A stretch of DNA of 64,000 nt, taken from Candidatus Rokuibacteriota bacterium. Its GTDB lineage: Bacteria > Methylomirabilota > Methylomirabilia > Rokubacteriales > DASRDR01. The position numbers and the translations under genes were made by a program. The first letter of the stretch is position 1. Each line of letters opens with the position of its first letter. The notes beneath the pieces were generated by a model. That model worked only from the letters and a program-made list of their open reading frames with translations. It was not told where the DNA came from and made no database searches. Location of the stretch: the NCBI GenBank assembly GCA_044866005.1, contig JBIOTN010000067.1, positions 1 through 64,000 on the forward strand, read 5' to 3'. Of the stretch, positions 20,628 through 52,773 are shown one piece after another.

Positions 20628-21095
20628 ATGGCCGAGCTGATCCACGTCTCCCGGGTCAGGATCGTGAAGGACAAGGGGCCGGTGCGGCGCGCCTACATCG
20701 AGCAGTTCCCGGACCCGGTGCGCTACGGCGTCCACGGCGGCATCAAAGACTTCTACGGGGTGGACCCGGTGGAGGAGCTGCCCACCACCCTCGACCACGT
20801 GATCGCGGCGGTCGCAGGGTGAATGACCGGGACGCTAGCCGGGGCGCTAGCGGCGCGGAAGATCCCGACCCAGCCCGATCGCCTCTCCTCCGAGGTCGAG
20901 GGATTCATCGAGAACGTGGACGGCAAGCCCTTGATCACCCGGATCAAGGTCCACTACAAGCTCCGGGTCCCTCCGGGCAAGCGCGCAGAAGCGCTGCGGG
21001 CGATCGAGGTGCATGAGCAGGGCTGCCCGGCGTCCCAATCAGTCAGGCGCGGCATCGCGATCGAGTGGGACGGCGACGTGCACGAGGAGGCTTGA
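20628..21095 (+). CDS. OsmC/Ohr-like protein, putative selenoprotein (U65)
   Basis: GGAGGAG RBS; frame open through one TGA at 20820 (AAVAG-U-MTGT), second Cys in GCPAS; hairpin at 20833-20852. Confidence 0.8.
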
Positions 21096-21212
21096 GCGCC
21101 ACTCGGCCCGTCGCCGGCTCGCGGCCGCGCGCGCAGTGTTATCATTGAAGCGTCGAGGAGGCGTCGGGCCGCGTCGCGGGCCCGCAAACCAGTGGTTGCC
21201 CGGAGGTCCGAG

Positions 21213-22094
21213 ATGGACATCGGCACGTTGCGGTTGAAGGTCGGCTTCGCGGAGATGTTGAAGGGCGGCGTCGTCATGGACGTGACGACCGCCGAGCAGG
21301 CCCGGATCGCGGAGGACGCCGGCGCCTGCGCGGTGATGGCGCTGGAGCGGGTCCCCGCCGACATCCGCCGGGAGGGCGGGGTCGCCCGGATGGCCAGCGT
21401 CCGGAAGGTCCGCGAGATCATCGACGCCGTCTCCATCCCCGTCATGGCGAAGTGCCGCATCGGGCACTTCGTCGAGGCCCAGATCCTCCAGGCGCTCGGC
21501 GTGGACTACATCGACGAGTCCGAGGTCCTGACCCCCGCGGACGAGCACTTCCACGTGGACAAGTTCGCCTTCACCGTGCCCTTCGTGTGCGGCGCGCGGG
21601 ACCTCGGCGAGGCCCTCCGCCGGATCGGGGAAGGGGCGGCGATGATCCGCACCAAGGGCGAGGCGGGCTCGGGGAACATCGTGGAGGCCGTGCGGCACAT
21701 CCGAAAGGTCATCGGCCACATCAAGCGGCTCACGACGCTGGGCCCGGAGGAGCTGATGGCCGAGGCCAAGGAGCTCGGGGCGCCCTACGAGCTCGTCCGG
21801 TGGGTCGCGCGCGAGGGCCGGCTGCCGGTGCCGAACTTCGCGGCGGGCGGCGTGGCGACCCCCGCCGACGCGGCGCTCATGATGCAGCTCGGCGCCGAGG
21901 CGATCTTCGTCGGCTCGGGCGTCTTCAAGTCCGCCGACCCCGCCGCGCGCGCCCGCGCCATCGTCCAGGCGACGACCCACTACCGCGACCCGGACGTCCT
22001 GGCGAAGGTCTCGGAGGCGCTCGGCGAGGCGATGCCGGGCATCGAGACCTCCAAGCTGCCGGCGTCCGAACGGCTCGAGACGCGCGGCTGGTGA
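21213..22094 (+). CDS. pdxS: Pyridoxal 5'-phosphate synthase, lyase subunit
   Basis: [37 protein letters not shown]. Confidence 0.97.
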
Positions 22095-22177
22095 CCCCGG
22101 GCGCGGGCCCCGCGGCCGACGTCCCGGTCGAGGTGGACCCGGCCGGCCGGCCGTCGCGGGCGCCGGGTCGAGAGGGG

Positions 22178-22765
22178 ATGCGGATCGGGGTCCTGGCGCT
22201 CCAGGGGGACTTCGCCGCGCACACGCGGGCGCTCGGTCGCCTGGGCATCGAGGCGCCGGAAGTCCGGAAACCCGCCGAGCTCGCGCGCCTCGACGGCCTC
22301 GTCCTCCCCGGCGGCGAGAGCACGACCCTGCTCACGCTGATGGGCGAGGAGTTCCCGCCGGCGCTCCGCGCCTTCCACGCGGCCGGCAAGCCGCTCTACG
22401 GGACCTGCGCGGGATTGATCGTGCTCGCCCGGGAGGTGCTCGGCCCGCGCCAGCCCTCCGTCGGGCTGATCGACCTCACGGTCGAGCGCAACGCGTACGG
22501 CCGCCAGCGCGAGTCCTTCGAAGCGGAGGGCGAGGCGCGGCTCGGCGGCGCGCCCGCGCCGCTGCGCATGGTCTTCATCCGCGCCCCGCGTATCGTCCGC
22601 GCGGGGCCCGGCGTGACGACGCTCGCCACGTGGAAGGACGAGCCCGTGCTGGTCCGGGAGGGGCCGGTCCTGGCGAGCACGTTCCACCCCGAGTTGACGG
22701 ACGAGCTCGCCATCCACCGGTACCTGGCGCAGATGGTCGTGGCGGCCGGCCGGCCGTCGGGCTGA
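22178..22765 (+). CDS. pdxT: Pyridoxal 5'-phosphate synthase, glutaminase subunit
   Basis: GVLALQG, PGGEST, GTCAG, RNAYGRQ, FIRAP, FHPE. Confidence 0.95.
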   Translation: MRIGVLALQGDFAAHTRALGRLGIEAPEVRKPAELARLDGLVLPGGESTTLLTLMGEEFPPALRAFHAAGKPLYGTCAGLIVLAREVLGPRQPSVGLIDLTVERNAYGRQRESFEAEGEARLGGAPAPLRMVFIRAPRIVRAGPGVTTLATWKDEPVLVREGPVLASTFHPELTDELAIHRYLAQMVVAAGRPSG

Positions 22766-22806
22766 CCGCCGCCACCTCGGTCCGTGCGAGGGCTCGGGAG
22801 GTGGCC

Positions 22807-24549
22807 GTGAGCCGATCGGGCAAGGCGGCGCGCGGGGCGCGGCGGCGACCGCGGGCGGCCCGGTCCCGGGCCGCGCGGCGGGGCAAGCCGCTCGAGCGGG
22901 GTCTCGCGCGGGGCGCGGCCAACTACGTCCCGCTCACGCCGATCTCGTTCCTCGCCCGCGCCGCCGGCATCTATCCGACCAAGGCGGCGGTGATCCACGG
23001 CGAGCGGACGTACAGCTATGCCGAGCTCTTCGCCCGCTGCCGCCGGCTCGCCTCGGCCCTCGTCCGGCGCGGCATCGGCCGGGGGGACACCGTCGCGATC
23101 ATGGCCCCGAACGTCCCGGCCATGCTCGAGGCGCACTACGGCGTGCCGATGGCCGGGGCGGTGCTGAACGCGCTGAACTACCGCCTCGACGCCCGATCCA
23201 TCGCCTTCATGCTCGAGCACGGCCGGGCCAGGCTCCTGATCACGGACACGGAGTTCTCGGCCACGATCGGCCCGGCGCTCGCCCTGGTGAAGCGTCCGCT
23301 GCCCGTCATCGACATCGACGACCCGCTCGGCGGCGAGGACCGGGCCGGGAAGTTGCTCGGGGAGACGGACTACGAGGCCTTCCTGCGGGAGGGCGATCCC
23401 GAGTTCGCCTGGCCGGCCCCCGCCGACGAGTGGCAGGCGATCTGCCTCCTCTACACCTCGGGGACGACGGGGGACCCCAAAGGCGTCGTCTACCACCATC
23501 GCGGCGCCTACCTGAACGCCCTCGGCAACGCGCTCGCGTTCGGCCTGTCGCCGCGCACCGTCTATCTCTGGACCCTGCCGATGTTCCACTGTAGCGGCTG
23601 GACCTACACCTGGGCCGTCACGGCGGTCGGCGGGACGCACGTCTGCCTCCGCCGCGTGGATCCGGCGCGGGTCTTCCAGGCGATCCAGGCCCACGGCGTC
23701 ACGCACATGTGCGGGGCCCCCGTCGTCATGACCATGCTCGTCCACGCGCCCGCCGAGGCGAAGGTGACATTCGACCACGTCGTGGAGATCGCGACCGGCG
23801 GCGCGGCCCCGCCGTCGGCCGTCATCCGGGCGATGGAGGCGATGGGCTTCCGGGTCACGCACCTCTACGGCCTCACCGAGACCTACGGGCCGGCCACGCT
23901 CTGCGCCTGGCAGGCGGGCTGGGACGGCCTCGGGCTCGCGGAGCGCGCCGCCCTCATGGCGCGCCAGGGGGTGGCCTACCCGACGCTCGGCGCGGTCACG
24001 GTCGCCGAGCCCCGGACGCTGCGCCCGGTGCCGCGCGACGGCCAGACGATCGGCGAGGTGATGATCCGCGGCAACACCGTGATGAAGGGCTACCTCGGGA
24101 ACCCGCGCGCCACGACCGAGGCGTTCCGGGGCGGGTGGTTCCACACCGGCGACCTGGCCGTCTGGCATCCCGACGGCTACATCGAGATCAAGGACCGGTC
24201 GAAGGACATCATCATCTCCGGCGGCGAGAACATCTCCTCGCTGGAGGTCGAGGAGGTCCTCTACCGCCATCCCGCGGTGATGGAGGCCGCCGTCGTCGCG
24301 AAGCCGGACGAGAAGTGGGGAGAGACGCCCTGCGCCTTCGTCACGCCGAAGCCCGGCGCCGGCGAGGTCACCGCCCGGGAGATCGTCGACTGGTGCCGCG
24401 CGAACCTGGCCCGGTTCAAGGTGCCGCGGCACGTCGTGTTCGGGCCGCTCCCCAAGACCTCGACCGGGAAGATCCAGAAGTTCGTCCTGCGCGAGCGGGC
24501 GAAGACGGGGCTCCCGTCGGAGAGCGGAGGCGGCGGGCGCGCGGAGTGA
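22807..24549 (+). CDS. Acyl-CoA synthetase (AMP-binding family)
   Basis: YTSGTTGDPKG, YGLTETYG, GWFHTGD, DRSKD, TSTGKIQK. Confidence 0.92.
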   Translation: MSRSGKAARGARRRPRAARSRAARRGKPLERGLARGAANYVPLTPISFLARAAGIYPTKAAVIHGERTYSYAELFARCRRLASALVRRGIGRGDTVAIMAPNVPAMLEAHYGVPMAGAVLNALNYRLDARSIAFMLEHGRARLLITDTEFSATIGPALALVKRPLPVIDIDDPLGGEDRAGKLLGETDYEAFLREGDPEFAWPAPADEWQAICLLYTSGTTGDPKGVVYHHRGAYLNALGNALAFGLSPRTVYLWTLPMFHCSGWTYTWAVTAVGGTHVCLRRVDPARVFQAIQAHGVTHMCGAPVVMTMLVHAPAEAKVTFDHVVEIATGGAAPPSAVIRAMEAMGFRVTHLYGLTETYGPATLCAWQAGWDGLGLAERAALMARQGVAYPTLGAVTVAEPRTLRPVPRDGQTIGEVMIRGNTVMKGYLGNPRATTEAFRGGWFHTGDLAVWHPDGYIEIKDRSKDIIISGGENISSLEVEEVLYRHPAVMEAAVVAKPDEKWGETPCAFVTPKPGAGEVTAREIVDWCRANLARFKVPRHVVFGPLPKTSTGKIQKFVLRERAKTGLPSESGGGGRAE

Positions 24550-24578
24550 TGCCGCGCCGGCCGGGGGAAGGCCGAGCG

Positions 24579-25448
24579 TCAGGACGGCAGCCCGAACAGC
24601 GAGCTGACCCGCTGCGCCTCGACCATCGCCGCCATCTCCGCGTCGGGAGGACGGCGGCGGACGCGGCTCGCGGCCTCCAGGACCCGGGGAAGCAAGGCCA
24701 GGTCTGCCGGCGTGTCGAGGAAGACATCGGGCAGGCCGAGCGCCCAGTGCACCGCCCGGTCGATGTCGGCCGGCTCCTCGAGCGGCTGGTACCAGGTGGT
24801 GCGCGTCCGGTCTGCCGTGGCCCAGGGCCCGCGCGCGATGGCCTTGATGACCTGGACCGCGACCTGCCGCTCGCGGCAGATGCTCAGCAGTGCCTCGACG
24901 TCCGCGCGGTAGCGCTCGCTCTGGGCCATCAAGAAGTTATACGGCAGCAGCACCGTGTCGAAGTCGAAGCGCGCGAGGCTGCGCTTGTGCATGGCGGGGA
25001 TCGTCCAGCCGTGACCGGTCACCCCGATAAAGCGCGCGAGCCCCTGCTCGCGGGCCTCGATCGCCGCCTCCAGGGCGCCGCCCGGTCCCATGGCCTGCTC
25101 CCACTCGTCGGGGTGGCCCAGCGAGTGCAGCTGGATCAGGTCGACGTGGTCCACCCGGAGCCGGTCGAGCGAGCGGTGAAGCTCCTCGCGGGCGCCGTCG
25201 CGGGTGCGCATGGCGGTCTTCGTCGCGAGGAAGAACTCCTTCCGGTGCCCGGCCATCCACGGGCCGATGCGGAGCTCGGAGTCCCCGTACCGCGCCGCGG
25301 TGTCGATGTGGTTGACGCCGTGCCGCAAGAGCAGGTCCAGGGCGCGGTCGGCCTCCGCCTGCGGGCACCGGGCGAGGGCGGCCGCCCCGAAGATGGTCAC
25401 CGTGCTGAGGTGACCGGTGCGTCCGAAGGGTCGCCGTTCGATCATCAC
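24579..25448 (-). CDS. Aldo/keto reductase
   Basis: [25 protein letters not shown]. Confidence 0.88.
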
Positions 25449-25464
25449 GCGGCTCCTCGCGGCC

Positions 25465-27912
25465 CTAGAGCGCCAGCTTCCGCAGGCGGAGGGCGTTGCC
25501 GACGACGGAGACGGAGCTGACGCTCATCGCCGCGCTGGCGACCACCGGGCTCAAGAGCAGACCGAAGACGGGGTAGAGGACGCCGGCGGCGAGCGGGACG
25601 CCGAGCGAGTTGTAGACGAAGGCGAAGAAGAGGTTCTGCCGGATGTTCCGCATCGTGGCCCGGCTCAGCCGGCGGGCCCGCACGATGCCCCGCAGGTCGC
25701 CCTTGACCAGGGTCACCGCGGCGCTCTCCATGGCGACGTCCGTCCCCGTCCCCATCGCGATCCCCACGTCGGCCTGGGCCAGCGCCGGCGCGTCGTTGAT
25801 GCCGTCACCCGCCATCGCCACCCGCCGGCCCTCGGCCTGGAGGCGCCGGACGACCTCGCCCTTCGCCGCCGGCAGGACCTCCGCCTCGACGCGGTCGATC
25901 CCGAGCGCGCGGGCGACGGCCTCGGCGGTCGTCCGGCTGTCGCCGGTGAGCATGACGACCTGGAGGCCCTCCTCGCGGAGCAGGCGGATCGCCTCGGCGC
26001 TGGACGGCTTGATGGGGTCGGCGACGCCGAGCAGGCCGGCCGCCCGGCCCTCCACGACGACGAACACGACGGTCTGCCCGTCCTGGCGGAGCTTCTCCGC
26101 CTGACCGGCCAGGACCCCGGGCGCGACGGCCAGCTCGTCCAGCAGCCGCGCGTTCCCGAGCGCCACCGCCCGGCCGTCCACGCGGCCCACCACGCCCTTG
26201 CCGGTGAGCGACCGGAACTCGGTCAGCTCGCCGAGCGCGAGGCCGCGCGCGGTGGCCCCCGCGACGATCGCCGCGGCGAGCGGGTGCTCGCTCCCCCGCT
26301 CGAGCGTCGCGCCGAGGCGCAGGAGCTCCCCGTCGGCGAGGGGCGGCAGGACCACGATGGAAGTCAGGCGCGGCTTGCCCTCCGTGAGGGTGCCGGTCTT
26401 GTCCACCACCACCGTGTCCACCCGCTCCATGATCTCCAGGGCCTCGGCGTGCTTGACGAGCACGCCCGCCGTCGCGCCCCGGCCCGTGGCGACCATGATG
26501 GACATCGGCGTGGCCAGGCCGAGCGCGCACGGGCAGGCGATGATCAGCACGGCCACCGCGTTCACGAGCGCGTAGGCCAGGCGCGGCTCGGGCCCGACGA
26601 GCGCCCACGCGGCGAAGGTCAGCCCCGCGATCGCCACGACCGCCGGCACGAAGTACGAGGAGACCACGTCGGCCAGACGCTGGATCGGCGCGCGCGTGCG
26701 CTGGGCTTCGCCGACCATGCGCACGATCTGGGCGAGGAGCGTGTCGCTGCCGACCCGCTCGGCCCGCATGACGAAGCTCCCCGTGCCGTTCACGGTTCCG
26801 CCGGTCACCCGGCTCCCCGGCGTCTTCTCCACGGGGACGGGCTCGCCCGTCAGCATGGACTCGTCGACGGCGCTCGCGCCCTCGAGCACGACGCCGTCCA
26901 CGGGGACGCGCTCGCCCGGGCGGACGCGGAGCCGGTCGCCGGGGGCCACCTGCTCGAGCGGCACGTCTTCCTCCGCCCCGGCCTCGCCGAGGCGTCGCGC
27001 CGTCTTCGGCGCCAGCCCCAGCAGCGCGCGGATCGCGCTGCTGGTCCGGCTGCGGGCGCGGAGCTCGAGGACCTGCCCCAGCAGCACCAGCACCGTGATG
27101 ATCGCCGCCGGCTCGAAGTAGACGGGAACCTCGCCGCCGTGGCCGCGGAAGGCGGGCGGGATGAGCCCGGGCGCGAGCGTCGCCGCGACGCTGTACCCGT
27201 ACGCCATGCCGATCCCGAGCGCGATGAGCGTGAACATGTTCAGGCTGCGGTTCACGATCGAGGCATAGCCGCGCTGGAAGAGCGGCCAGCCGCCCCAGAG
27301 GACCACCGGCGTGGCGAGGGCCAGCTCGAGCCAGGTCACCGCGCGCATCGACAGCGCGCGCTGGACCGGCTGCCCGGGCCACATGTCCGACATCGCGAGG
27401 ACCAGGATGGGGACGGAGAGGAGCAGGCTCACCCGGAAGCGGCGGGACATGTCCACGAGCTCCGGGCTCACCTCGGCCTCGGCCGTCACCGTCCGGGGCT
27501 CGAGCGCCATCCCGCAGATCGGGCAGAGGCCCGGCTCGGGCCGGACGATCTCCGGGTGCATCGGGCAGAAGTACTCGGTCCGGAATGCGGGTGCCGCGGC
27601 GACCGGCGGCTCGAGCGCCATCCCGCACTTCGGGCACGCGCCGGGTCGGGGCTCGCGGACCTCGGGGTCCATCGGGCACGTGTAGCCGCCGGCCGTCGCC
27701 TCCGCCGCCGCGGCGCTCCGGCGCTCGCCGGAGGGCGCCACGTAGCGCCCGGGGTCTGCGCGGAACCGCTCGAGGCAGGAGGGGTGACAGAAGAGGTACG
27801 TCCGGCCGCCGTAGGCGTGGCGTCCGGCGGCCTCGGCCGGCTCCACCGTCATCCCGCAGACGGGGTCCGTCGCCGCCTGTCCGATCGCCTGCGCCCGCTC
27901 GTCCCCTGTCAT
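25465..27912 (-). CDS. copA: Cu(I)-exporting P1B-1 ATPase with YHS and heavy-metal-binding domains
   Basis: DPVCGM, YTCPM and CPKCGM repeats, TGE, CPC, DKTGT, SEHP, GDGIND, YN, MSVSS. Confidence 0.93.
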
Positions 27913-28085
27913 GGCGTCACCTCTACAGAGGGTATACCCGGGCCCGGAGATGCGGGAGCCCCGCGCGGGGGCCGCGCCCGGCCGGCGGAGTGCAAGACGC
28001 TGCCGGCGCCGGGCGCCGGATGTAGAATGAGCGGGTCCGCGGCGACTGCTGTACTCCGCCTTCGGAGTCTTGGAGGACCACGCGC

Positions 28086-29534
28086 ATGACGACCGCACCC
28101 AGCGCCAGCTACAGCATGACGATGCGGCTCGAGATCCGGAACCGCCCGGGGATGCTCGGGAAGATCGCCTCCGCGATCGGGAAGGCGGGCGGGGACATCG
28201 GCGCCGTGGACCTGGTCCAGGTGGGCGCGGGCGTGCTCACGCGCGACATCACGTTCAACGCGCGGGACGAGGAGCACGGCCAGTCGGTCGTCGGGGCGGT
28301 GCGCCGGGTCGCCGGGGTTCGGGTCGTCGCGGTGTCGGACCGCACGTTCCTCATGCACCTGGGCGGCAAGATCGAGGTGCGGGGGAAGGTGCCGGTGAAG
28401 ACGCGCGACGACCTGTCGATGGCGTACACGCCGGGGGTGGCGCGCGTCTGCCTGGCCATCCGCGACGAGCCGCAGACGGCCTACGCGCTGACCATCAAGC
28501 AGAACACGGTCGCCGTCGTCACCGACGGCACCGCGGTGCTGGGGCTGGGCGACATCGGGCCGAAGGCCGCCATGCCCGTGATGGAAGGCAAGGCGCTCCT
28601 GTTCAAGGAGTTCGCCGGCGTGGATGCCTTCCCCCTCTGCCTGGCGACCAAGGACGTGGACGAGATCGTCGCGATCGTCCGCGCGGTGTCGCCGGTCTTC
28701 GGGGGCATCAACCTGGAGGACATCGCCGCCCCGCGCTGCTTCGAGATCGAGGAGCGGCTCCGCAAGGAGCTCGACATCCCGGTCTTCCACGACGACCAGC
28801 ACGGGACCGCGGTCGTGGTCCTGGCCGCGCTGATCAACGCGCTCAAGGTGGTCAAGAAGAGGCTCGCGGACGTGCGCGTCGTCTTCTCCGGCGCGGGCGC
28901 CTCGGGGATCGCGACGGCGAAGCTCCTCATGGCGGTCGGCTGCCGGCACATCATCGGCTGTGACCGCTCGGGCACGCTCTACCGGGGTCGCCGCGAGAAC
29001 ATGAATCCGGTCAAGGCGTGGTTCGCCGAGCACACGAACGAAAAGCGCGTGCGGGGCAGCTGCGGCGACGCCCTCCGCGGCGCCGATGTCTACATCGGGC
29101 TGTCCGGGCCCGGGGTGGTGACGCCGCGGGAGGTGCGGCGGATGGCGCGCCACGCGGTCGTCTTCGCCATGGCGAACCCGGTGCCCGAGATCATGCCGGA
29201 GGACGTCCAGGGGATGGTCCGCGTCATGGCCACGGGCCGGTCGGACTACGCGAACCAGATCAACAACGTGCTCTGCTTCCCGGGCTTCTTCCGCGGCCTG
29301 CTGGACGTGCGGGCGCGGCTGGTGAACGACGAGATGAAGATCGCGGCCGCCCGCGGCATCGCCTCCATCATCGCGGCGAGCGAGCTGGGCGAGGAGTACA
29401 TCATCCCCTCGGTCTTCGACAAGCGCGTGGTCGAGGCGGTGGCGGACGGGGTCGCCCGCGCCGCCGTGCAGACCGGGGTGGCGCGTCGCCGCCGTCGGCT
29501 CCCCGCGGGGGGCGCCGGCCGGAACGGCGCGTAG
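28086..29534 (+). CDS. Malic enzyme with N-terminal ACT domain
   Basis: [41 protein letters not shown]. Confidence 0.92.
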
Positions 29535-29577
29535 CCGCCCCCGCGGGCGGAGCCGGGCCGGCCGGCGAGGCCACGGG

Positions 29578-40004: not shown

Positions 40005-40313
40005 ATGCGACGTGTCGCCGGACTCATGGCGGTGCTGCTTCTGATGGCGTGGCTCACCGTGCCTGTCACCGCCTTCGCGGCGACCAAGGTCGCCGTGATC
40101 GAGGTCAAGGGGATGGTCTGTCAGGCCTGACCCTTCTCGGTCAAGACAGCCTTGGAGAGGCTGCCGGGGGTGAGCCGAGCTGACGTGAGCCTCGAGAAGG
40201 CGGAGGCTCGGGTCGAGTTCGACGACGCGAAGATCTCGGCCGACAAGCTGGCCGCGGCCGTCGACCGGCTGGGCTTCCGCGCTCGGGTGCTCGCCGTCGA
40301 GCCAGGGGGGTAG
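40005..40313 (+). CDS. Periplasmic MerP-like HMA protein, putative selenoprotein (GMVCQAU, U42)
   Basis: Not in the ORF track; signal peptide, then VKGMVCQA-TGA(40128)-PFSVKTALERLPGVSRADVSLEKAEARVEFDD, colinear with MerP GMTCAACPITVKKAL. Confidence 0.85.
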
Positions 40314-40314
40314 C

Positions 40315-40581
40315 GTGCCGGTCGAGATCGAGCTCTTGACCGCGCCCGGCTGAGGGAAATGCGAGGCCGCCAAGGCGTTGGCGCTCGACGTGATCGACTC
40401 GGTCCGAGCGGAGTGCCATGATGTGTGGCTCACGGTCGTCGACGTCACGGAGCAGCCTGCCGTGGCGGTGAAGTACCGCGTGACGGCGACGCCCGCCATC
40501 GCGATCGACGGAGTCCTCGCCTTCCGCGGCGTCCCCCCAGCCCACGTCCTCCGCGACCGAATCTTGCAGGCGAAGGCGTGA
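40315..40581 (+). CDS. Small thioredoxin/glutaredoxin-like protein, putative selenoprotein (UGKC, U13)
   Basis: MPVEIELLTAPG-TGA(40351)-GKC...ATPAIAIDG; starts 1 nt after the previous stop. Confidence 0.85.
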
Positions 40582-43148: not shown

Positions 43149-43163
43149 CGGGCTCTCGCGGCT

Positions 43164-44243: not shown

Positions 44244-44268
44244 GTGGCCTCCACCCGCTGACGGATGG

Positions 44269-44610: not shown

Positions 44611-44724
44611 GGTCGATCCTCCTGTCGACGCCGGTGCGTGCGGTCCGTAACCCTGCAAAGCGGGTACCGCCGATCGCCCGGTTTGCGTGCGCCGGGACGC
44701 GAAGGATGGTAAGCTACCGGCCAG

Positions 44725-45054: not shown

Positions 45055-45169
45055 TCGCTCGATCTCGCTCGTTGGGATACCGGCCGCCGCGGACGGCGGC
45101 CAGGCTCGAGACTCGTCGCTCGACGTCATCGGACGACGTGTCCGTGGGCGCGTGGCGGAGGCGTGAACT

Positions 45170-45718
45170 GTGCGCGTGCAGCGGATTGCAGGCGGTCGGC
45201 CACACGTGGGGCTCGTCCTCGCGTTGCTCGTCTCCGTCTCGCCCGCGACGGTGTCGGATGCGACCGACGTCCGGCCGGCCGTCGGGCATCGCGCGCCCGA
45301 TTTCGTCCTCCGCGATCCGGACGGCCAGCCGGTCGAGCTCTCCCGGATCCTCGGCGAGCACGCCGTCCTCCTCAACTTCTGGGCGACCTGGTGTCCGCCG
45401 TGCCGCGAGGAGATGCCGACGATGGAGCGGGCGTACCGCGACTACAAGGCGCGCGGGCTCACGGTCCTGGCCGTGAGCATCGACGCCGGCAGTGAAGCAT
45501 CCGTCAGGGCGAAAGTGAAGGCGTTCATGAAGGAGCTGAAGCTCACGTTCCCGGCCGTGCTGGACGTCGAGGGCGAGGTCGTGCGCCGCTACCGGCTGCG
45601 CGGCCTCCCCACGACGTTCCTGATCGACCGGACGGGCATGATTCGATCGGAGGAGCTCGGGTTCCGGGACTGGAGCGATGCCGCGGCGCGAAGGAAGCTG
45701 GACGCCCTGCTGAAATGA
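45170..45718 (+). CDS. TlpA/ResA-like thiol-disulfide oxidoreductase
   Basis: NFWATWCPPCREEMP, LPTTFLID. Confidence 0.92.
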   Translation: MRVQRIAGGRPHVGLVLALLVSVSPATVSDATDVRPAVGHRAPDFVLRDPDGQPVELSRILGEHAVLLNFWATWCPPCREEMPTMERAYRDYKARGLTVLAVSIDAGSEASVRAKVKAFMKELKLTFPAVLDVEGEVVRRYRLRGLPTTFLIDRTGMIRSEELGFRDWSDAAARRKLDALLK

Positions 45719-45728
45719 GTCCCCGCCC

Positions 45729-46496
45729 ATGGCGCTGATTCACGAGCTGATGCGGAGCTGGTACCTGGTGCTGAGCCGGTTGAGCGCCGCGCTCACCGTC
45801 CCGGTGAGCGACCTCGCCGACCGGATCGAGCTCCCGCTCCTCACGGTGCTGCTCTTCGGCGTGGTCGGCGCGATGGCGCCCTGTCAGCTCACGACGAACC
45901 TCTCGGCGATGGCCTACGTCGGGAGCCGCGCCGGCGAGGGCCGGCCCTGGCGCGAGACGCTCGCCTACCTCGCGGGGAAGGCCCTCGTCTACACGCTGGT
46001 CGGCGCCGCCGTCTTCGCGGTCGGCCGGGAGCTCCAGGCGGCGGCCATTCCCGTGGCCATGGCGGCGCGAAAGGCGCTCGGGCCCCTCATGATCCTCATC
46101 GGCCTGGGGCTGCTGGGGCTCTACCGGCTGCGCGGCTCGCTCGGCGGTCGGCTCTCCGCCTGGCTGCGGACCCGGGCACCGCAGCGCGGCGCGTGGGGCG
46201 CCTTCCTGCTCGGCGTGGCCTTTGCCGGGAGCTTCTGTCCCACGCTCTTCTGGCTCTTCTTCGGCCTGACGATCCCGCTGGCCCTGCGGAGCGCGGCCGG
46301 GTGGAGCTTCCCGGCGGTCTTCGCGGCCGGCACCACGCTGCCCCTCGTCGCGTTCGCCGGGCTGCTCGCGCTGGGGCGCGAGGCCGGCGGGCTGGTCGAG
46401 CGCCTCCAGCGCTCCCACGGGCTCGTGCACCGGATGGCGGGGGTGGTGATCATCCTGGCGGGGATCAACGACACGCTGACGTACTGGGCGCTCTGA
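45729..46496 (+). CDS. CcdA/DsbD_2-like multi-TM protein
   Basis: APCQLTTN and SFCP Cys pair, about six TMs. Confidence 0.75.
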   Translation: MALIHELMRSWYLVLSRLSAALTVPVSDLADRIELPLLTVLLFGVVGAMAPCQLTTNLSAMAYVGSRAGEGRPWRETLAYLAGKALVYTLVGAAVFAVGRELQAAAIPVAMAARKALGPLMILIGLGLLGLYRLRGSLGGRLSAWLRTRAPQRGAWGAFLLGVAFAGSFCPTLFWLFFGLTIPLALRSAAGWSFPAVFAAGTTLPLVAFAGLLALGREAGGLVERLQRSHGLVHRMAGVVIILAGINDTLTYWAL

Positions 46497-46526
46497 GACA
46501 CGGCACGCTGAAACGGAGGATCTGAC

Positions 46527-47030
46527 ATGTCGAGGATCGAGCGAGAGCGAATCGGGGCGGCGGGCGGGGAGAACGGCGCGGGGACGGCCGGCCCGGGTGG
46601 CGGCGCGCGCTACTGTGCCGTGTGCGGGACGGCGGTGGGCGGCGAGAGTCCCCCGATCGAGCGCTTCGGCGAGCCGTTCTGCTCCGAGGCGCACGCGGCG
46701 GAGTTCGTCGACCGGGTGCGGGGCGCCCGGGTCCAGGCCGCGGCGAGGCCGCCGGCCGCGGGCAGCGCGTGTGCCATGGGTGCAGGCGACGCCGCCGCGC
46801 CGGGACAGCGCGGGAAGGCGACCCTCGGGCGGGCGCTCTGCTGGGGCGCGCCGCTCCTGGTCCTCGGCGTGCTGCTGGTCGGCGGCACCGGCGCGCTGGC
46901 GGGGGCGGCCGGCGCCCTCCTGCCCGCGCTCGCGATCCTGGCCTGCCCGCTCGGGATGTACCTGATGATGCGCTCGATGTCGAAGATGGGCCACCAGGAC
47001 GACCGCGGCGACACGGATGGCCGGAAGTAG
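46527..47030 (+). CDS. TRASH/YHS-like metal-binding domain plus DUF2933-like TM region
   Basis: CAVCG...FCSEAH; LACPLGMYLMMRSM. Confidence 0.7.
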   Translation: MSRIERERIGAAGGENGAGTAGPGGGARYCAVCGTAVGGESPPIERFGEPFCSEAHAAEFVDRVRGARVQAAARPPAAGSACAMGAGDAAAPGQRGKATLGRALCWGAPLLVLGVLLVGGTGALAGAAGALLPALAILACPLGMYLMMRSMSKMGHQDDRGDTDGRK

Positions 47031-47097
47031 CGCCGGCCGTGCGCCGGGCGCGAGCGCTCGCCCTGACGGCACGGTCGAGTAAAAAGGGGCGCGACGC

Positions 47098-47718
47098 GTG
47101 AAGCTCTACGAGCGGTACGTGTTGCCGTGGCTGATCCACCTGGCCATGCAGACCCGCGTGCACACCGCGGAGCGGGCGCGGTTCGTCCCCATCGCCACCG
47201 GGCTGGTCCTCGAGGTCGGGGTCGGCTCGGGGCTCAACCTGCCCTTCTATGGCCCGAAGGTCGCGCGGCTCTACGCGCTCGACCCCTCACGAGAGCTCTG
47301 GCGGCTGGCGCGCCGGCGGCTGCGAGCGGTCGCGTTCCCGGTCGACTATCTCGCGGCCTCGGCGGAGCAGATTCCCCTGGACGACGGGAGCGTGGACTCC
47401 GTCGTGAGCACGTGGACCCTCTGCACGATCCCGGATCCCGCCAGCGCGCTCGGCGAGATCAAGCGCGTCCTGAAGCCGGACGGGCGCTTCGTCTTCGTCG
47501 AGCACGGACGGGCGCCCGAGCCGGGCGTGCGCCGCTGGCAGCAGCGGCTCGACCGGGTCTGGCCGCGGATCGCGGGGGGCTGCCACCTCGGCCGCCAGAT
47601 CGACGACGTGATCGCCGGAGCCGGGTTCCGCGTGGCGCAGATCGAGCGCGGGTACACGCCGGGCTTGCCCCGGCCGTTCGGATACCGGTTCAAGGGGCTC
47701 GCCCAGCGCCCCGACTGA
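47098..47718 (+). CDS. Class I SAM-dependent methyltransferase
   Basis: VLEVGVGSG, TWTLCTIPD, FVEHG, GGCH. Confidence 0.9.
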   Translation: MKLYERYVLPWLIHLAMQTRVHTAERARFVPIATGLVLEVGVGSGLNLPFYGPKVARLYALDPSRELWRLARRRLRAVAFPVDYLAASAEQIPLDDGSVDSVVSTWTLCTIPDPASALGEIKRVLKPDGRFVFVEHGRAPEPGVRRWQQRLDRVWPRIAGGCHLGRQIDDVIAGAGFRVAQIERGYTPGLPRPFGYRFKGLAQRPD

Positions 47719-47734
47719 CCAACGGGAGGAAGAC

Positions 47735-48637
47735 GTGCGAAGACGCATACTGAGCTGGTTTCGGGTCGTAGGAGCGGGGGCGGCGCTGCTCGGGGCGACA
47801 GGGCTTGCGTCCGCCGCCTCGCAGCATCCTGGCACGGCGAGCTCGACGTTCGAGCATGTCCACGCCCTGGCGATGGACGCCGAGGGCCGGACGCTCTGGC
47901 TCGGGACTCACGCCGGGCTCTTCCGGACCGAAGGCGGGGGACGGTCGTGGGAGCCGGTGGCGCTGCCTGTGCCGGCGGGCCACGCCGACATCATGACGGT
48001 GACCACCGACCCGGGCGATTCCCGGGTGCTCTACGCCGCCACGCACGATGCCGGGGTCTTCAAGAGCGTGGACGGCGGGGCGACGTGGAAAGCCGTGAAC
48101 GCCGGCCTCGGCGGGCTGGACGTCCACGGGCTCGCCGTCGACCCGAACACGCCGTCGAAGCTCCACGCCGCCGTGCGGGACAAGGGCGAGGGGATCTATC
48201 GGAGCACCGATGGCGGCGGCAAGTGGACGCGCGTGGACGATGGACCCGGCGGCGAGGTCAAGGTCCTGGCCTCGGTCAACATGCCGACGGGGATGGGCGG
48301 CATCTGGCTGTACGCGGGCACGGCCGAGGGGCTTCAGCGGAACCCCGACTGTTTCTGAGGGTGGAAGCTCATGGCGGGCGGTCTGCCCGCCGGAAAGACG
48401 GTGAACGGCTTCGCGGTGGATCCCACCAATCCGCGCCTGATGTACGTCGCGATGCGGGACGGCCTCTTCCGCAGCACGGATGGCGGCGAGAGCTGGAAGC
48501 CGGTAGGTAAGGGGCTCCGGGACATGGCGGTCGTGGTCGTGAACCCGAAGCGGCCGGCCGAGGTCTACGCGGCGACGACCGATGGGATGATCTACCGGAG
48601 CGCCGACGGAGGAACCACGTGGGAACGCCGGAAGTGA
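47735..48637 (+). CDS. Secreted BNR/Asp-box beta-propeller protein, putative selenoprotein (CFU, U208)
   Basis: HVHAL/DVHGL and SxDGGxxW repeats continue in frame on both sides of one TGA at 48356 (NPDCF-U-GWK). Confidence 0.8.
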
Positions 48638-50163
48638 CGACGCTGTCGCGGCGGGACTTCCTCCGCCTGTCGGGCGGGGCCGGGGTCGGCGCCGTGGCCT
48701 TCTCGCTCGGCGGCGGCGTGCTCTCCCGCGCGGGCGCCGCGCCGGCCGGCGGGCGGGGCGTCCGGGAGATCCGGCTCGAGGCGAGCGACCTCACGTGGGA
48801 GCTCGCACCGGGGAAGCGCGTCAAGGCCATGGCCTACGGCGGCCAGGTCCCGGGGCCGGAGCTGCGGGTCAAGGAAGGCGAGCGCGTGCGCGTCATCCTG
48901 ACGAACCGCCTCGCCGAGCCGACGACGATCCACTGGCACGGGGTGGACGTCCCGAACGCCATGGATGGCGTGCCGGCGGTCACGCAGAAGCCGGTGCCGC
49001 CCGGCGAGAGCTTCGTCTACGAGTTCGAGGCGCGGCCCGCCGGGACGCGCTGGTACCACACGCACGCCGACGAGCATCGGCAGCTGGACCTCGGTCTCGC
49101 GGCGCCGTTGATCATCGAGCCGGCGACCGCCGAGCCCTTCCCCTTCGACCGCGAGTACACGCTCGTCCTCGACGACTGGGCGACCGGGACGGGTCCGGCA
49201 TTGCCGCCGACGCGCGAGGGGATCGCCGGCGCGCGCGGCGGCATGGGCGGGATGATGGGCCGAATGGGCGGCGGCATGGGCCGCATGATGGAAGGGATGA
49301 TGGGCCGGGGCGGCATGGGCGGGATGATGGGCGGCCAGATGTCGGGACGCGGGCACGAGCCGGCCTACGACACGATGACGATCAACGGCAAGGCCTACCC
49401 GGCGACGACCCCGCTCACCGTGCGGAAGGGCGAGCGGGTCCGCCTGCGGCTGATCAACGCCAGCGCCGACCACACGCACGTGATCCGGCTCGCCGGCCAC
49501 CGCCTCCGGGTCACCCACACCGACGGCAATCCGCTCGTCCAGCCGGTCGAGGTGGACGCGATCCCGATCGCGCCCAGCGAGCGCTACGACGTCCTGTTCG
49601 TGGCCGATCGGCCGGGCGCGTGGTTCCTCCACTGTGTGCAGACCGGTCACCCGGGCGCGGGCGAGCAGGTCGCCGTGGTGTACGAGGGGCACGAGGGCGA
49701 GAGACCCGACCCGCCGGCCGGGGGCGTGGCCGGGCTCGACCTCTGGCAGTACGGGCTCGGCCGGGGCCGGGACGTGCTGCCGCGCGCGTGGGGGGGCGAG
49801 CGCGCGTTCGACCTCCTGCTGAGCGGCGGCATGATGGGCTCGGACGCCTGGACGATCAACGGCAAGCAGTACCCGCGCACGGATCCACTGCGCGTCCGGA
49901 AGGGCGACCGGGTCCGCGTCCGGTTCGAGAACCACAGCATGGAGGCGCACCCGATGCACCTCCACGGGCAGTCGTTCAAGGTCCTCGCCGTCAACGGCGC
50001 CCGGTACGCGGCCCCCATCGTGAAGGACAGCGTGGACGTGGACGCTCACATGGGCTCGGTCGTCGTCGAGTTCACCGCCCACAACCCCGGCGACTGGTTC
50101 CTCCACTGCCACAAGCCCATGCACATGGAGGGCGGCATGATCACCCTCGCCCAGATCGCCTGA
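48634..50163 (+). CDS. Tat-exported multicopper oxidase with Met/Gly-rich loop
   Basis: SRRDFL, IHWHG, WYHTH, HPMHLHG, HCHKPMHMEGGM; start may be 48619. Confidence 0.93.
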   Translation: MTTLSRRDFLRLSGGAGVGAVAFSLGGGVLSRAGAAPAGGRGVREIRLEASDLTWELAPGKRVKAMAYGGQVPGPELRVKEGERVRVILTNRLAEPTTIHWHGVDVPNAMDGVPAVTQKPVPPGESFVYEFEARPAGTRWYHTHADEHRQLDLGLAAPLIIEPATAEPFPFDREYTLVLDDWATGTGPALPPTREGIAGARGGMGGMMGRMGGGMGRMMEGMMGRGGMGGMMGGQMSGRGHEPAYDTMTINGKAYPATTPLTVRKGERVRLRLINASADHTHVIRLAGHRLRVTHTDGNPLVQPVEVDAIPIAPSERYDVLFVADRPGAWFLHCVQTGHPGAGEQVAVVYEGHEGERPDPPAGGVAGLDLWQYGLGRGRDVLPRAWGGERAFDLLLSGGMMGSDAWTINGKQYPRTDPLRVRKGDRVRVRFENHSMEAHPMHLHGQSFKVLAVNGARYAAPIVKDSVDVDAHMGSVVVEFTAHNPGDWFLHCHKPMHMEGGMITLAQIA

Positions 50164-50236
50164 CGATGTCGGACGGACGGCGAGGAGGCGAGGGCGGGAA
50201 GTCGCCGCATGGGCCGCTCGGGAGGAGGCCGACACC

Positions 50237-50812
50237 GTGAACCTGTCACGCTGGGGTTGGGGTTCCCGCGCCTCCCGGCTCGGATTGTTGGTGCTGGTGG
50301 GCCTGGCGGCGCCGGCGCTCGCGGCCTCGGGGCCCGGCGACGCGCCCAGGGACCCCTTCGACACCATGGGCGTGCACCGTCCGGCGGAGCCGGCGCCGGC
50401 TCCGGATCTGGCCTTCCGGTCGCTGGACGGTCGCGAGGCGCGCCTGCGCGACCTCCGGGGCAAGGTGGTCCTCCTCGGTTTGTTCCGGACCGACTGACCC
50501 AACTGCCGGCGGGAGGCTCCCGCCAAGGCGGCGCTGTATCGGGCGTTCCGGGCAAAGGGACTGGAAGTCGTGGGACTCGACCTGGGGGAATCGGCGGAGA
50601 TGGTCCGAGCCTTCGCGAGAGAGTTCCAGGTGACGTTCCCCATGTGGCTCGACCCCGCGGGCCAGAGTCCGGCGGCCCTCGGCGTCTACGGGCATCCCAA
50701 CACGATCGTCATCGACCGCGAGGGCCGCATCGTCGGCCGCGTCCGGGGCGAGCGTGACTGGGGCACCGACGACGCCCGACGTCTGGTCGAGGTCCTGTTG
50801 AGCCGCCGATGA
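50237..50812 (+). CDS. TlpA-like redoxin, putative selenoprotein (UPNC, U87)
   Basis: LRGKVVLLGLFRTD-TGA(50495)-PNCRREAP...HPNTIVIDREG; two track ORFs are the two halves of one frame. Confidence 0.87.
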
Positions 50813-51549
50813 CCCGGAAAACGGGGCTGGCCAGAATGCCGCGAGCGGCGTGGCTCGCCGGCCTCGTCGTCCTGCACGCCGCCGTCGCCGCCGTGGCGAC
50901 GTGGATGGCGGTCACCGGGCAATGGCCCCGCGCGCTGGGGCTCGGAGCGGCCGGCGAGTCCACGCCGGCGACCCTGGAGACGCTCGGCCGGTACGGCGAA
51001 CTGCCGGACTTCCGGCTGACCGAGCGGAGCGGCGACAGTGTGAGCCGGGCCGACCTGCTCGGGAAGGTCTGGGTGGCGAACTTCGTCTACACGCAGTGCA
51101 CCGAGACGTGCCCGCTGCAGACGGCCGAGATCGCGCGACTCCAGGCCGAGTTCGTGGGGGAGGCGGACTTCCGGCTCGTCTCGATCACCGTGGACCCCGA
51201 GCGGGATGACACGGCGGCCCTGTCGCGCTACGCGGAGCGCTACGGAGCGGACAGGCAGCGCTGGCTGTTCCTCACCGGGGACAAACGCGCGATCTACCGC
51301 CTCGCCAAGGACGGCTTCCGCCTGGGCGTCGTCGATCCCGACGACCCCGGAGCGAGCCAGACGAGCCTTCTCCACTCCTTCTCACCGGCCGCGGCGTGGG
51401 CGACCCACGGCTCCCAGGGCCTGATCATGCACAGCTCCCGGTTGGTGGTCGTGGACCGGACCGCGACGATCCGCGCCTATCACCTCCCCGACGACCCGCA
51501 ATCGCTCGCTCGTCTCCGGCGGAACGTGCGGAGCGTGCTCCACCCGTGA
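50809..51549 (+). CDS. SCO family copper chaperone
   Basis: FVYTQCTETCP, ITVDPERD, WLFLTG, MHSSR. Confidence 0.9.
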   Translation: MTRKTGLARMPRAAWLAGLVVLHAAVAAVATWMAVTGQWPRALGLGAAGESTPATLETLGRYGELPDFRLTERSGDSVSRADLLGKVWVANFVYTQCTETCPLQTAEIARLQAEFVGEADFRLVSITVDPERDDTAALSRYAERYGADRQRWLFLTGDKRAIYRLAKDGFRLGVVDPDDPGASQTSLLHSFSPAAAWATHGSQGLIMHSSRLVVVDRTATIRAYHLPDDPQSLARLRRNVRSVLHP

Positions 51550-51686
51550 ACCAGCTCTGGAGGCTCGGCCGCTGGGCGGCCGCTGGCCTGGTCGTCGCCG
51601 TCGTGGCCAAGGTCAGCCTGGAGATCATGCGCGGCGGCCCGGGCCGCCACAACGTCGAGGCGGTGCGCGACGCGCGCGGCGGATGA
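51546..51686 (+). CDS. Small single-TM peptide
   Basis: 46 aa; start and stop overlap both neighbours (GTGA and ATGA). Confidence 0.45.
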   Translation: MNQLWRLGRWAAAGLVVAVVAKVSLEIMRGGPGRHNVEAVRDARGG

Positions 51687-52267
51687 GGTCGCCGATGCCT
51701 CGCCTCGGAAAGTACGCCATGGTGCTCGTCCCGGCCGTCGGCCTGATCGGGCTCCTCGCCTATGGCTTTAGCCGGGACCCCCGCGACATCCGCTCGCCGC
51801 TCCTCGGGCGCCCCGCCCCGCCGCTGTCGCTGACGCTCTTCGACGGCAGCCGGTTCGTCCTGGCCCAGCAGGCGGACAAGGTCGTCGTCGTGAACTTCTG
51901 GGCGTCCTGGTGCCTGCCGTGCCGGGACGAGGCGCCGCTCCTCGAGGCCGCCTGGGTCGCCTACCGGGAGCGCGGGGTCGTCGTGGTCGGGGTAAACTTT
52001 CAGGACGCGGAGCCCGCCGCGCGCGCCTTCCTCGGTGAGTTCGGCCTGACGTACCCGAACGGGCCCGACGCCGGTGGGCGGATCGCGATCGGCTACGGCG
52101 TCTACGGGATCCCCGAGCTGTTCGTCATCGGGCGGGACGGGCGGATCGCGTACAAGCACATCGGCGCGATCGGGGGGACTGTGCTCGTGGCGAAGGTCGA
52201 AGAGGCCCTCCGCGGCACGGTCAGCGCGAGCGAGGGGCGGAGCGGGCGCTATCAACCGATCCGGTGA
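51683..52267 (+). CDS. TlpA/DsbE (CcmG-like) thiol-disulfide oxidoreductase
   Basis: NFWASWCLPCRDEAP, YGVYGIPE. Confidence 0.9.
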   Translation: MRSPMPRLGKYAMVLVPAVGLIGLLAYGFSRDPRDIRSPLLGRPAPPLSLTLFDGSRFVLAQQADKVVVVNFWASWCLPCRDEAPLLEAAWVAYRERGVVVVGVNFQDAEPAARAFLGEFGLTYPNGPDAGGRIAIGYGVYGIPELFVIGRDGRIAYKHIGAIGGTVLVAKVEEALRGTVSASEGRSGRYQPIR

Positions 52268-52284
52268 CCGAAAGGAGCCACTCG

Positions 52285-52773
52285 GTGTCGCAGGACGATC
52301 GGAACGTCGAGCGATCGCGCATCACGCTGCTGGCCGGAGGCCTCGCCCTGGCGCTCACCCTGGCGACCCGGCGGGAATCTCGCGCGGCGCCAACGCCCTT
52401 TCCCGAGGTCATGGTCTACAAGACCCCGACCTGACGCTGCTGCGACGCGTGGGTGGGGCACCTGCGCCAGCACGGGTTTTCGGTGACGGTCGAGAATCGC
52501 ACGGACCTCCGGCCGATCAAGGCGAAGCACGCGGTGCCGGCCGAGCTCCAGACCTGTCACACGGCGCTCGTCGGCGGCTACGTCGTGGAAGGGCACGTGC
52601 CGGCCGACCTGATCGTCCGCCTGCTCCGCGAGCGGTCGCCGGTGGCCGGCCTCGCCGTCCCCGGGATGCCGGTCGGGTCGCCCGGGATGGAAGTGCCGGG
52701 GAGCCCGGCGGCCAAATATCAGGTCTTCAGCTTCGACCGGAGCGGCAAGACGACGGTGTTCGCGAGCCGGTGA
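52285..52773 (+). CDS. DUF411/CopG-like periplasmic copper protein, putative selenoprotein (URCC, U50)
   Basis: AAAGGAG RBS; VYKTPT-TGA(52432)-RCCDAWVGHL...TCHTA...EGHVP...PGMPVGSPGME. Confidence 0.87.

Follow-up and report, generated by a model that had tools for sequence, protein, structure and literature searches.

Six in-frame UGA codons in a Candidatus Rokuibacteriota contig are followed by hairpins that are very probably canonical bacterial SECIS elements

Six SECIS-like hairpins downstream of in-frame TGA codons

The first 64 kb of contig C67 (JBIOTN010000067.1) of a Candidatus Rokuibacteriota genome (assembly GCA_044866005.1), a stretch of 64,000 nucleotides that we refer to as the window, contains six genes that each have an in-frame TGA codon followed at short distance by a hairpin. 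These genes, referred to below as OsmC, HMA, Trx_3, BNR, TlpA-like and DUF411, are listed in Table 1, and we consider it very probable that their hairpins are canonical bacterial selenocysteine insertion sequence (bSECIS) elements lying within six genuine selenoprotein genes. The genome has the machinery for selenocysteine (Sec), the six UGAs are conserved and in frame, and the hairpins are non-random and track TGA rather than cysteine (Cys) codons. By analogy with the established bacterial systems, SelB would be expected to bind these hairpins and Sec would actually be inserted at the six sites.

All six of the in-frame TGAs named in the original prediction, which was made from the sequence letters alone, are confirmed, and the open reading frames (ORFs) run on for 60–112 codons beyond them in every case. 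The 5′ ends of the hairpins lie 10–16 nt after the TGA at all six sites. The predicted coordinates prove exact, and all six hairpins fold as written, with energies of -7.6 to -14.9 kcal/mol for the isolated hairpins. The stem, offset and loop values in Table 1 are those of a mechanical enumerator, which reproduces all six of the predicted loop offsets, and GG begins at loop position 1 or 2 in 6/6 (cGGggc, uGGag, GGcg, GGucu, GGc and GGg). The OsmC stem includes two CTA Leu codons, whose rarity had been remarked on at the outset, and CTA indeed accounts for only 189 of ~73,000 Leu codons in long genes, a relative usage of 0.3%.

The bSECIS consensus of bSECISearch (Zhang & Gladyshev 2005), as summarised in the sections of PMC13188914 covered here, comprises a loop of 3–9 nt, an upper stem of 4–16 bp, at least one G among the first two loop nucleotides, with G or U often coming next, a distance of 16–37 nt from UGA to loop, and a minimum free energy (MFE) of no more than -7.5 kcal/mol. 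All six hairpins satisfy every one of these terms (position, loop, stem, G start, spacing and energy), with the Trx_3 hairpin being borderline in energy. Canonical SECIS elements are given for 87.4% of the entries of BSepDB in the part of PMC13326102 covered here. A scan of the whole window against Rfam at the gathering threshold gave no matches, and no curated family reached threshold over the six hairpins.

Table 1. Coordinates of the putative SECIS hairpins, Sec-UGA codons and selenoprotein genes in the window. Energies are those of isolated hairpins; offsets are from the TGA to the start of the loop.
Feature	Position	Strand	Description
SECIS hairpin of OsmC	20833..20852	+	cgctagc-cggggc-gctagcg; 7 bp, loop 6 nt, offset 17 nt; -10.4 kcal/mol
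SECIS hairpin of HMA	40147..40163	+	cagcct-tggag-aggctg; 6 bp, loop 5 nt, offset 22 nt; -8.4 kcal/mol
SECIS hairpin of Trx_3	40368..40383	+	cgccaa-ggcg-ttggcg; 6 bp, loop 4 nt, offset 20 nt; -7.6 kcal/mol
SECIS hairpin of BNR	48373..48391	+	ggcgggc-ggtct-gcccgcc; 8 bp by the enumerator, loop 5 nt, offset 21 nt; -14.9 kcal/mol
SECIS hairpin of TlpA-like	50508..50524	+	ggcggga-ggc-tcccgcc; 7 bp, loop 3 nt, offset 17 nt; -12.2 kcal/mol
SECIS hairpin of DUF411	52447..52467	+	gcgtgggtg-ggg-cacctgcgc; 9 bp including 2 G.U, loop 3 nt, offset 21 nt; -12.3 kcal/mol
Sec-UGA of OsmC gene	20820..20822	+
Sec-UGA of HMA gene	40128..40130	+
Sec-UGA of Trx_3 gene	40351..40353	+
Sec-UGA of BNR gene	48356..48358	+
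Sec-UGA of TlpA-like gene	50495..50497	+
Sec-UGA of DUF411 gene	52432..52434	+
OsmC-like selenoprotein gene	20628..21095	+	Sec residue 65, motif AG-U-MTG; Pfam OsmC residues 52-147, spanning the TGA
Periplasmic HMA (MerP/CopZ-like) selenoprotein gene	40005..40313	+	motif GMVCQA-U; Pfam HMA residues 31-91, spanning the TGA
Small thioredoxin-fold (Thioredoxin_3 / MJ0307-like) selenoprotein gene	40315..40581	+	motif PG-U-GKC; Pfam Thioredoxin_3 residues 4-77, spanning the TGA
BNR/Ycf48-like beta-propeller selenoprotein gene	47735..48637	+	motif PDCF-U-GW; Pfam BNR/PSII_BNR
TlpA/ResA-like redoxin selenoprotein gene	50237..50812	+	motif D-U-PNC; Pfam AhpC-TSA residues 54-166, spanning the TGA; NCBIfam ResA/TlpA
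DUF411 (CopG-like) selenoprotein gene	52285..52773	+	motif TPT-U-RCC; Pfam DUF411

Frequency of the hairpin geometry and its cost in codons

The window has a GC content of 72% and belongs to a 4.67-Mb genome in 247 contigs, with a completeness of 94% and a contamination of 4.6%. Base rates for the hairpin geometry were obtained from a home-made set of 3976 genes that covers 85% of the genome, using a strict geometry, defined post hoc, of a contiguous stem of at least 6 bp with Watson-Crick or G.U pairs, a loop of 3–6 nt, 17–22 nt from TGA to loop, and GG at loop position 1 or 2. This geometry is present at 22124 of 1147702 in-frame codons (1.9%), 172 of 9154 in-frame Cys codons (1.9%), 420 of 23607 out-of-frame TGAs within coding sequences (1.8%), 62 of 2695 stop TGAs (2.3%), and 33 of 1218 TAG or TAA stops (2.7%). 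With rates this low, its presence at six of six sites is beyond chance even with the post hoc definition allowed for; the probability of 6/6 is ~5e-11 at the 1.9% base rate, and with the GG requirement dropped the base rate rises to 8.5% and the probability is still ~4e-7. The original prediction had staked itself on GG-loop hairpins being rarer after ordinary stop codons, and on this point it holds. What sets the six sites apart is where the hairpin sits and what its loop contains, and not its energy.

Synonymous resampling, with 5000 resamples per site and codons drawn by genome usage, separates the sites into two groups. The strict geometry arises in 0/5000 resamples at HMA, 11/5000 (0.2%) at TlpA and 21/5000 (0.4%) at Trx_3, showing that these three hairpins depend on rare codons, whereas those of OsmC, BNR and DUF411 are largely written by the peptide. 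The HMA stem contains ACA (1.1%), TTG (2%) and AGG (2.3%), the Trx_3 stem contains TTG, the TlpA stem GCT (1.6%), and the BNR loop uses GGT (4%). The 20 codons that follow Sec have a coding score of -0.01 per codon in OsmC (20823–20882) and -0.11 in HMA (40131–40190), compared to a typical value of ~0.5, and this low score is a measurable cost of the embedded hairpin. Such a hairpin would have to be spelled in codons, with the cost being paid in rare synonymous codons and, at some sites, in specific amino acids.

Conservation of the hairpins in related genomes

Each of the six proteins was searched against 61 related genomes, and the counts given here are of public loci only, with eight loci of the two unpublished genomes G038 and G055 left out; because the genomes are related, the counts are not independent trials. 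Using a relaxed rule (a stem of at least 6 bp, a G[G/U] loop, and a loop start 15–33 nt downstream of the TGA), for which the background is 11.7% of random codons, a hairpin is present at 95 of the 97 TGA-bearing loci, which bears out the conservation that the original prediction expected of TGA-bearing orthologs. By family, the strict and relaxed forms respectively are found at 11/29 and 29/29 of the OsmC loci, 14/16 and 15/16 for HMA, 3/5 and 4/5 for Trx_3, 13/13 and 13/13 for BNR, 4/18 and 18/18 for TlpA-like, and 13/16 and 16/16 for DUF411. After a Cys codon the relaxed rule finds a hairpin at 0/11 TlpA, 2/9 DUF411 and 2/6 HMA loci, and since both of the HMA exceptions bear a TGA at the other Cys position, the figure for all-Cys HMA homologs is 0/4. 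The CxxC sites of Cys paralogs or metal proteins within the window serve as further controls and have no hairpin (0/5). The Sec and Cys orthologs thus form a clean natural control, in which the hairpin constrains both the codon choice and the amino acids downstream of Sec.

The in-frame TGAs are kept at the same codon in dozens of genomes, and where Cys homologs were found they align with catalytic or metal-binding Cys residues. Such an alignment of UGA with Cys is seen for DUF411 (16 TGA and 9 TGC public homologs), TlpA-like (11 Cys homologs) and HMA. Among the genomes searched no Cys form was found for OsmC (29/29 TGA) or for Trx_3 (5/5 TGA, these being all of the matches in the 61 relatives), nor was a Cys homolog found for BNR, for which 13/13 of the relatives' loci and 13/13 loci of a public collection carry TGA. 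By title, the latter 13 derive from Candidatus Rokuibacteriota (6), uncultured bacterium (3), Acidiferrales (1) and Deltaproteobacteria (3), and all 13 have the TGA together with a GGUCU or GGGCU hairpin, even at 53–57% GC.

The hairpins also vary between orthologs. In OsmC the hairpin is kept in 12 close orthologs, and close orthologs retain both CTA codons; there are variants containing G.U pairs, and one ortholog has a compensated alternative stem built from CTC and the rare AGA codon; more distant OsmC subfamilies have a GG-loop hairpin at 25–26 nt made from other codons, compared to 17–18 nt elsewhere. Within the same order, the Sec forms of TlpA-like proteins fall into a GGC class with the peptide RREAPA and an AGUUG class with the peptide R[KE]ELPS and the rare codons TTG and CCT, and the Cys forms have the peptide REEMPA and no hairpin. 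The BNR loop is GGUCU in 19 of 22 aligned orthologs and GGGCU in the other three. Covariation, which the original prediction had suggested looking for, is present though modest, in BNR, Trx_3 and the one alternative OsmC stem: in the 22 BNR sequences 94.8% of cells are paired, versus 37–56% when the partners are slid, and 3/7 pairs have changed on both sides, one of them being UA in 11, UG in 8 and CG in 3; in five Trx_3 orthologs 3/9 pairs have changed on both sides.

We note that one relative has a second DUF411 copy (L083) with TGC at the Sec position, which keeps a hairpin of the Sec type with a GGGGC loop and a 7-bp stem; a TGA copy (L062) is present in the same genome. In L083 Sec seems to have been replaced by Cys recently, leaving a fossil SECIS.

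Sec machinery and proposed decoding

The genome encodes a tRNA-Sec (C79:3620-3717) that adjoins selA and selB, and its SelB contains SelB-wing_2 and SelB-wing_3 domains. The selD gene has one in-frame TGA of its own, with a GGA loop on an 8-bp stem lying 20 nt further on. As 2724 of the 3976 predicted genes end in TGA, the codon is not globally reassigned.

Bacterial Sec decoding by SelB and a SECIS element is an established system in E. coli and Moorella, and the decoding proposed here is modelled on it. SelB-GTP with Sec-tRNA(Sec) would use its C-terminal winged-helix domain to bind the apical loop, with the conserved loop G and the G or U that follows it providing the main SelB contact. With the ribosome at the UGA, ~16–23 nt upstream of the loop, the tethered complex would then deliver Sec, and release factor 2 would not terminate.

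Sec sites elsewhere in the genome

Lenient coding potential on both sides is found for 302 of 82365 TGA trinucleotides; a more stringent filter was discarded, having recovered 1/6 of the known sites. The strict geometry follows 28 of the 302, compared to 5.7 expected, and six of the 28 are the window sites. Outside the window, 18 of 22 matches have the TGA inside a Pfam domain of a type known from selenoproteins (DsrE, rhodanese, five CMD/AhpD-like, YedE-like, four Prx, FdhA, two OsmC, MerB-like, a pyridine-nucleotide disulfide oxidoreductase, and UGSC), with the other four being adjacent genes or having no domain. The enrichment of GG loops is ~4-fold and is confined to loop starts at 16–21 nt. 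Widening the GG geometry to loop starts of 15–23 nt and loops of up to 7 nt gave three more candidates, none of which has a Pfam domain.

Family surveys that are independent of any hairpin found TGA in 5/6 CMD, 12/28 AhpC-TSA and 4/5 OsmC matches, and these sites together with SelD number 22, of which 14 have the GG geometry. Five of the eight that do not are TlpA/AhpC-like, with AGUUG, AGUUA, AGUUU or AGUUAC loops at 16 nt or AGUU at 25 nt, and the remaining three are one OsmC with a UGUAC loop and two Prx without a simple hairpin. A scan for G-U loops returned 19 of the 302 lenient candidates, compared to 3.4 expected; five were already in the family surveys, ten are newly confirmed by Pfam (MoeB/ThiF, Trx_3, three UGSC, four glutaredoxins and one rhodanese), three are false, and one is uncertain. 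Loop classes assigned automatically from the longest stem were rejected for falling into alternative registers: BNR was read as a G.U-closed GUC triloop, Trx_3 as a CGC hairpin that lies downstream, and FdhA at 36 nt. Since the division between GG and GU depends on the register, our counts follow explicit rules.

In all, there are at least 44 validated Sec-UGA sites in the genome, 25 with the GG geometry, ~15 with G-U loops without GG (including AGUUG, CGUGC and GUU), and 2 without a simple hairpin, with non-canonical sites being under-sampled, Pfam confirmation having been applied to candidates with such a hairpin and not to the 274 lenient candidates that lack one. Loop starts are at 16–23 nt in 38 of 42 hairpins. 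Such a very large selenoproteome is consistent with the 63 selenoprotein genes predicted in a Methylomirabilota metagenome-assembled genome (MAG) in the sections of PMC13188914 covered here. Its members include a MerB-like protein (C172:18123), a pyridine-nucleotide disulfide oxidoreductase with a C-x4-U motif (C175:68540), MoeB/ThiF (C8:27073), four UGSC, four Grx and five CMD proteins, ~12 AhpC/TlpA-like proteins, and a YedE-like protein.

A few of these genes depart from the simple pattern. The Prx genes at C57:61876 and C110:6248 (TPG-U / TGP-U) have the TGA at the peroxidatic position and no simple hairpin with a G-first loop at 14–37 nt, and their SECIS may be non-canonical and internally mismatched. 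In the gene for an NMT1-like periplasmic binding protein (C178:6688, L206), an in-frame TGA precedes the Pfam domain by ten residues and a 9-bp hairpin with a GUA/UGUAG loop is present 21–22 nt downstream; the status of this protein as a selenoprotein is uncertain. Among the HMA homologs of relatives, L157, L158, L159, L161, L163, L169, L170, L172 and L173 have two in-frame TGAs 9 nt apart (G-M-T-U-G-x-U) and a single hairpin, 22–23 nt after the second TGA and 31–32 nt after the first, such that one SECIS may serve two UGAs in these UxxU proteins. An HMA paralog in the same genome as the window (C82:2979, L168) and L156 have U at the first position only, with the loop 31–32 nt downstream.

Alternative explanations

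Several observations weigh against reading the six hairpins as bSECIS elements. Fit to the general model is by itself weak evidence, because a simplified version of that model is satisfied at 18.7% of random in-frame codons in this genome. The original prediction had looked to folding of the 60 nt after each TGA, and here it is only partly upheld: the claimed hairpin is within the MFE structure at 3/6 sites (Trx_3 and DUF411 being among those where it is not) and in the centroid at one more, and the total energy does not discriminate, with z = +0.38, +0.44, -0.11, -1.33, -0.65 and +0.54 relative to dinucleotide shuffles (OsmC, HMA, Trx_3, BNR, TlpA and DUF411), and with OsmC and Trx_3 being no different in MFE from their synonymous resamples. 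As this energy has no discriminating power in this genome it was dropped as a criterion, and we do not count it against the hairpins. At OsmC, DUF411 and BNR the peptide alone often suffices, yielding the strict geometry in 14%, 28% and 32% of synonymous resamples; the DUF411 hairpin is partly imposed by the peptide W-V-G-H-L, and Cys-type DUF411 orthologs have a shorter hairpin of 5–7 bp there, similar in MFE, whose GCC or GCG loop comes from W-V-x-H-L. RNA-level selection at such sites is less cleanly separable from protein constraint, and the Sec-specific part of the DUF411 hairpin consists of the Gly (GGN) loop and the extended outer stem. BNR offers no Sec/Cys pair, since its paralogs have R/S/T/K/H/D/A/E at the Sec site, and the covariation samples are small and the sequences related. 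Together with the background of the relaxed rule, the folding energies, the peptide-written geometries and the partial hairpin of the Cys-type DUF411 orthologs are what could be said for regarding the hairpins as side effects of conserved peptide motifs and GC-rich coding sequence, without a function at the RNA level. We think this highly improbable, as it does not account for six of six sites against a 1.9% base rate, for rare codons placed exactly in the stems where 0–0.4% of resamples give the geometry (HMA, Trx_3 and TlpA), for a hairpin that tracks TGA versus Cys within families (18/18 versus 0/11 in TlpA), for subfamilies that build it from different codons at different offsets, or for a geometry that picks out known selenoprotein families in 18/22 genome-wide matches. 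The notion that the TGAs are real stops, or reflect pseudogenes, assembly errors or a genome-wide reassignment of TGA, has nothing specific in its favour other than that MAG assemblies such as this one, with its incompleteness and contamination, can hold errors; it conflicts with the use of TGA as a stop in most of the predicted genes, the conservation of the TGAs at the same codon, the alignment of those of DUF411, TlpA-like and HMA with catalytic or metal-binding Cys residues, the domains that continue across them, and the full Sec machinery, and we give it a negligible probability.

The original prediction had gone further and proposed a lineage-specific GG-loop SECIS. The SECIS part of this is supported by the machinery, the tracking of TGA versus Cys, the rare codons and some covariation; the lineage-specific part is not, as there are GU loops in the same genome and GG loops elsewhere. 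A variant of this kind, with a GG loop start, a fixed spacing of 17–22 nt and a lineage-adapted SelB, would agree with the GG geometry at all six window sites and at 25 of the 44 validated sites, with the clustering of loop starts, with the restriction of GG enrichment to 16–21 nt, and with loops such as GGC, GGG, GGA and GGCG that have no U after the G. However, the pan-bacterial consensus, as given in the covered sections of PMC13188914, is already G[G|U] at 16–37 nt, ~15 validated Sec genes of this genome (Grx, UGSC, TlpA-like, MoeB, rhodanese and OsmC) have G-U loops without GG, and the GG geometry is present at only 14/22 sites of the hairpin-independent surveys and, in relatives, at 4/18 TlpA-like and 11/29 OsmC TGA-bearing loci. 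Moreover, TlpA-like selenoproteins of the same order have either GGC or AGUUG loops, the spacing extends to 25–26 nt in OsmC subfamilies and to 31–32 nt in HMA proteins with U at the first Cys position, and the same GGUCU or GGGCU hairpin follows the BNR TGA in MAGs titled Acidiferrales (1) and Deltaproteobacteria (3). We consider the lineage-specific reading very unlikely, and already largely refuted by the GU-loop Sec genes of the same genome. Since all terms of the model are satisfied, and the GG loop is neither universal in the lineage nor confined to it, the six hairpins are best read as ordinary bSECIS elements. It is a tentative idea, and one we are inclined to doubt, that Sec decoding in this lineage is tuned beyond the general model, with a preferred stem of 6–10 bp, a loop of 3–6 nt starting at 16–23 nt, interchangeable loop classes (GG without U, and A/C-G-U), and a tolerance for one hairpin recoding two UGAs 9 nt apart, as in the UxxU HMA proteins, or a UGA 31–32 nt upstream. 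Were this the case, the narrow rule would predict selenoproteins in GC-rich genomes with roughly ten times the specificity, and the natural GG/GU and spacing variants would be a ready series for dissecting SelB recognition.

The selenoprotein genes and their surroundings

The standard gene callers split all six genes, and the six TGAs therefore need to be annotated as selenocysteine and not as stops. A lenient coding-potential scan of the window gave no further credible in-frame TGA; of the two other positions that it listed, 12192 lies opposite a gene and 52771 is the stop codon of DUF411. The HMA frame contains an ATG at 40005, with a signal peptide after it that is read in frame with the HMA domain. 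The DUF411 start is probably the GTG at 52285, behind gaaaggag. For BNR and DUF411 the continuity across the TGA rests on orthologs aligned end to end, over residues 1-300 in the case of BNR. The BNR protein scores under the cut-off of NF045728, and no NCBIfam model matches the DUF411 protein of the window. In the BNR protein P-D-C-F-U-G-W constitutes one Asp-box position, and the stop codon of its gene overlaps the start of a multicopper oxidase gene (48634-50160).

Five of the six genes are located in a copper-type metal island (25468-53133) that also contains two P-type ATPases, two SCO1/SenC and two MerR proteins, a MacB-type ABC system, two CcdA/DsbD-like proteins, VKOR, Cys-type TlpA paralogs, and the multicopper oxidase. 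Portions of the island recur together on single contigs of relatives.

Literature searches pairing selenoprotein with DUF411 found no paper, those pairing selenocysteine with BNR repeat, Ycf48 or F510_1955 gave nothing relevant, and one pairing selenoprotein with Rokubacteria gave nothing related. Neither DUF411 (PF04214) nor the BNR/Ycf48-like propeller was seen in the parts of Table 1 of PMC13188914 covered here, and the Sec form of DUF411 may represent an uncatalogued selenoprotein family.

Comparison with known systems

Among the families in the window, OsmC-like, TlpA/redoxin, PF13192 thioredoxin-like and HMA metal-binding selenoproteins, as well as NF041115 (UxxU), are catalogued in the covered parts of Table 1 of PMC13188914. 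The HMA protein of the window differs from the NF041115 family in having CxxU with a single Sec, and its score against NF041115 (UxxU_metal_bind) is 85.6 bits, under the 95-bit cut-off. The six hairpins resemble intrinsic terminators and attenuators in being GC-rich stem-loops, but they lie inside continuing ORFs, lack a U-tract, and have a fixed distance from an in-frame UGA and a conserved G-rich loop.

There is no categorical difference between the six hairpins and the bSECIS consensus model; they occupy a narrow corner of it, with stems of 6–9 bp, loops of 3–6 nt, a spacing of 17–22 nt, and GG. The published bacterial SECIS model therefore holds in a genome of 72% GC, and as a SECIS finding ours is confirmatory. 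In such GC-rich DNA, global folding energy (z about 0) and the loose consensus both fail to discriminate and the position-specific rule does, the narrow corner being about ten times more specific (1.9% versus 18.7% background), which makes the strict rule the more useful predictor; applied genome-wide with confirmation by Pfam, the position-specific approach led to the validated Sec sites described above.

The SECIS of E. coli fdhF has the loop motif GGUC, with G23/U24. Compared to the SECIS elements of fdhF and of Moorella thermoacetica fdhA, five of the six window loops have no U after the G (GGC, GGG, GGCG, CGGGGC and UGGAG), and there is no evident bulged U in the stem. The likeness to these elements lies in the position directly after the UGA and in the SelB-wing domains of the SelB of this genome, and the GGUC motif of fdhF is also present in the BNR hairpin (GGUCU) and in the FdhA, MerB-like and Pyr_redox_2 hairpins of the same genome (GGUC).

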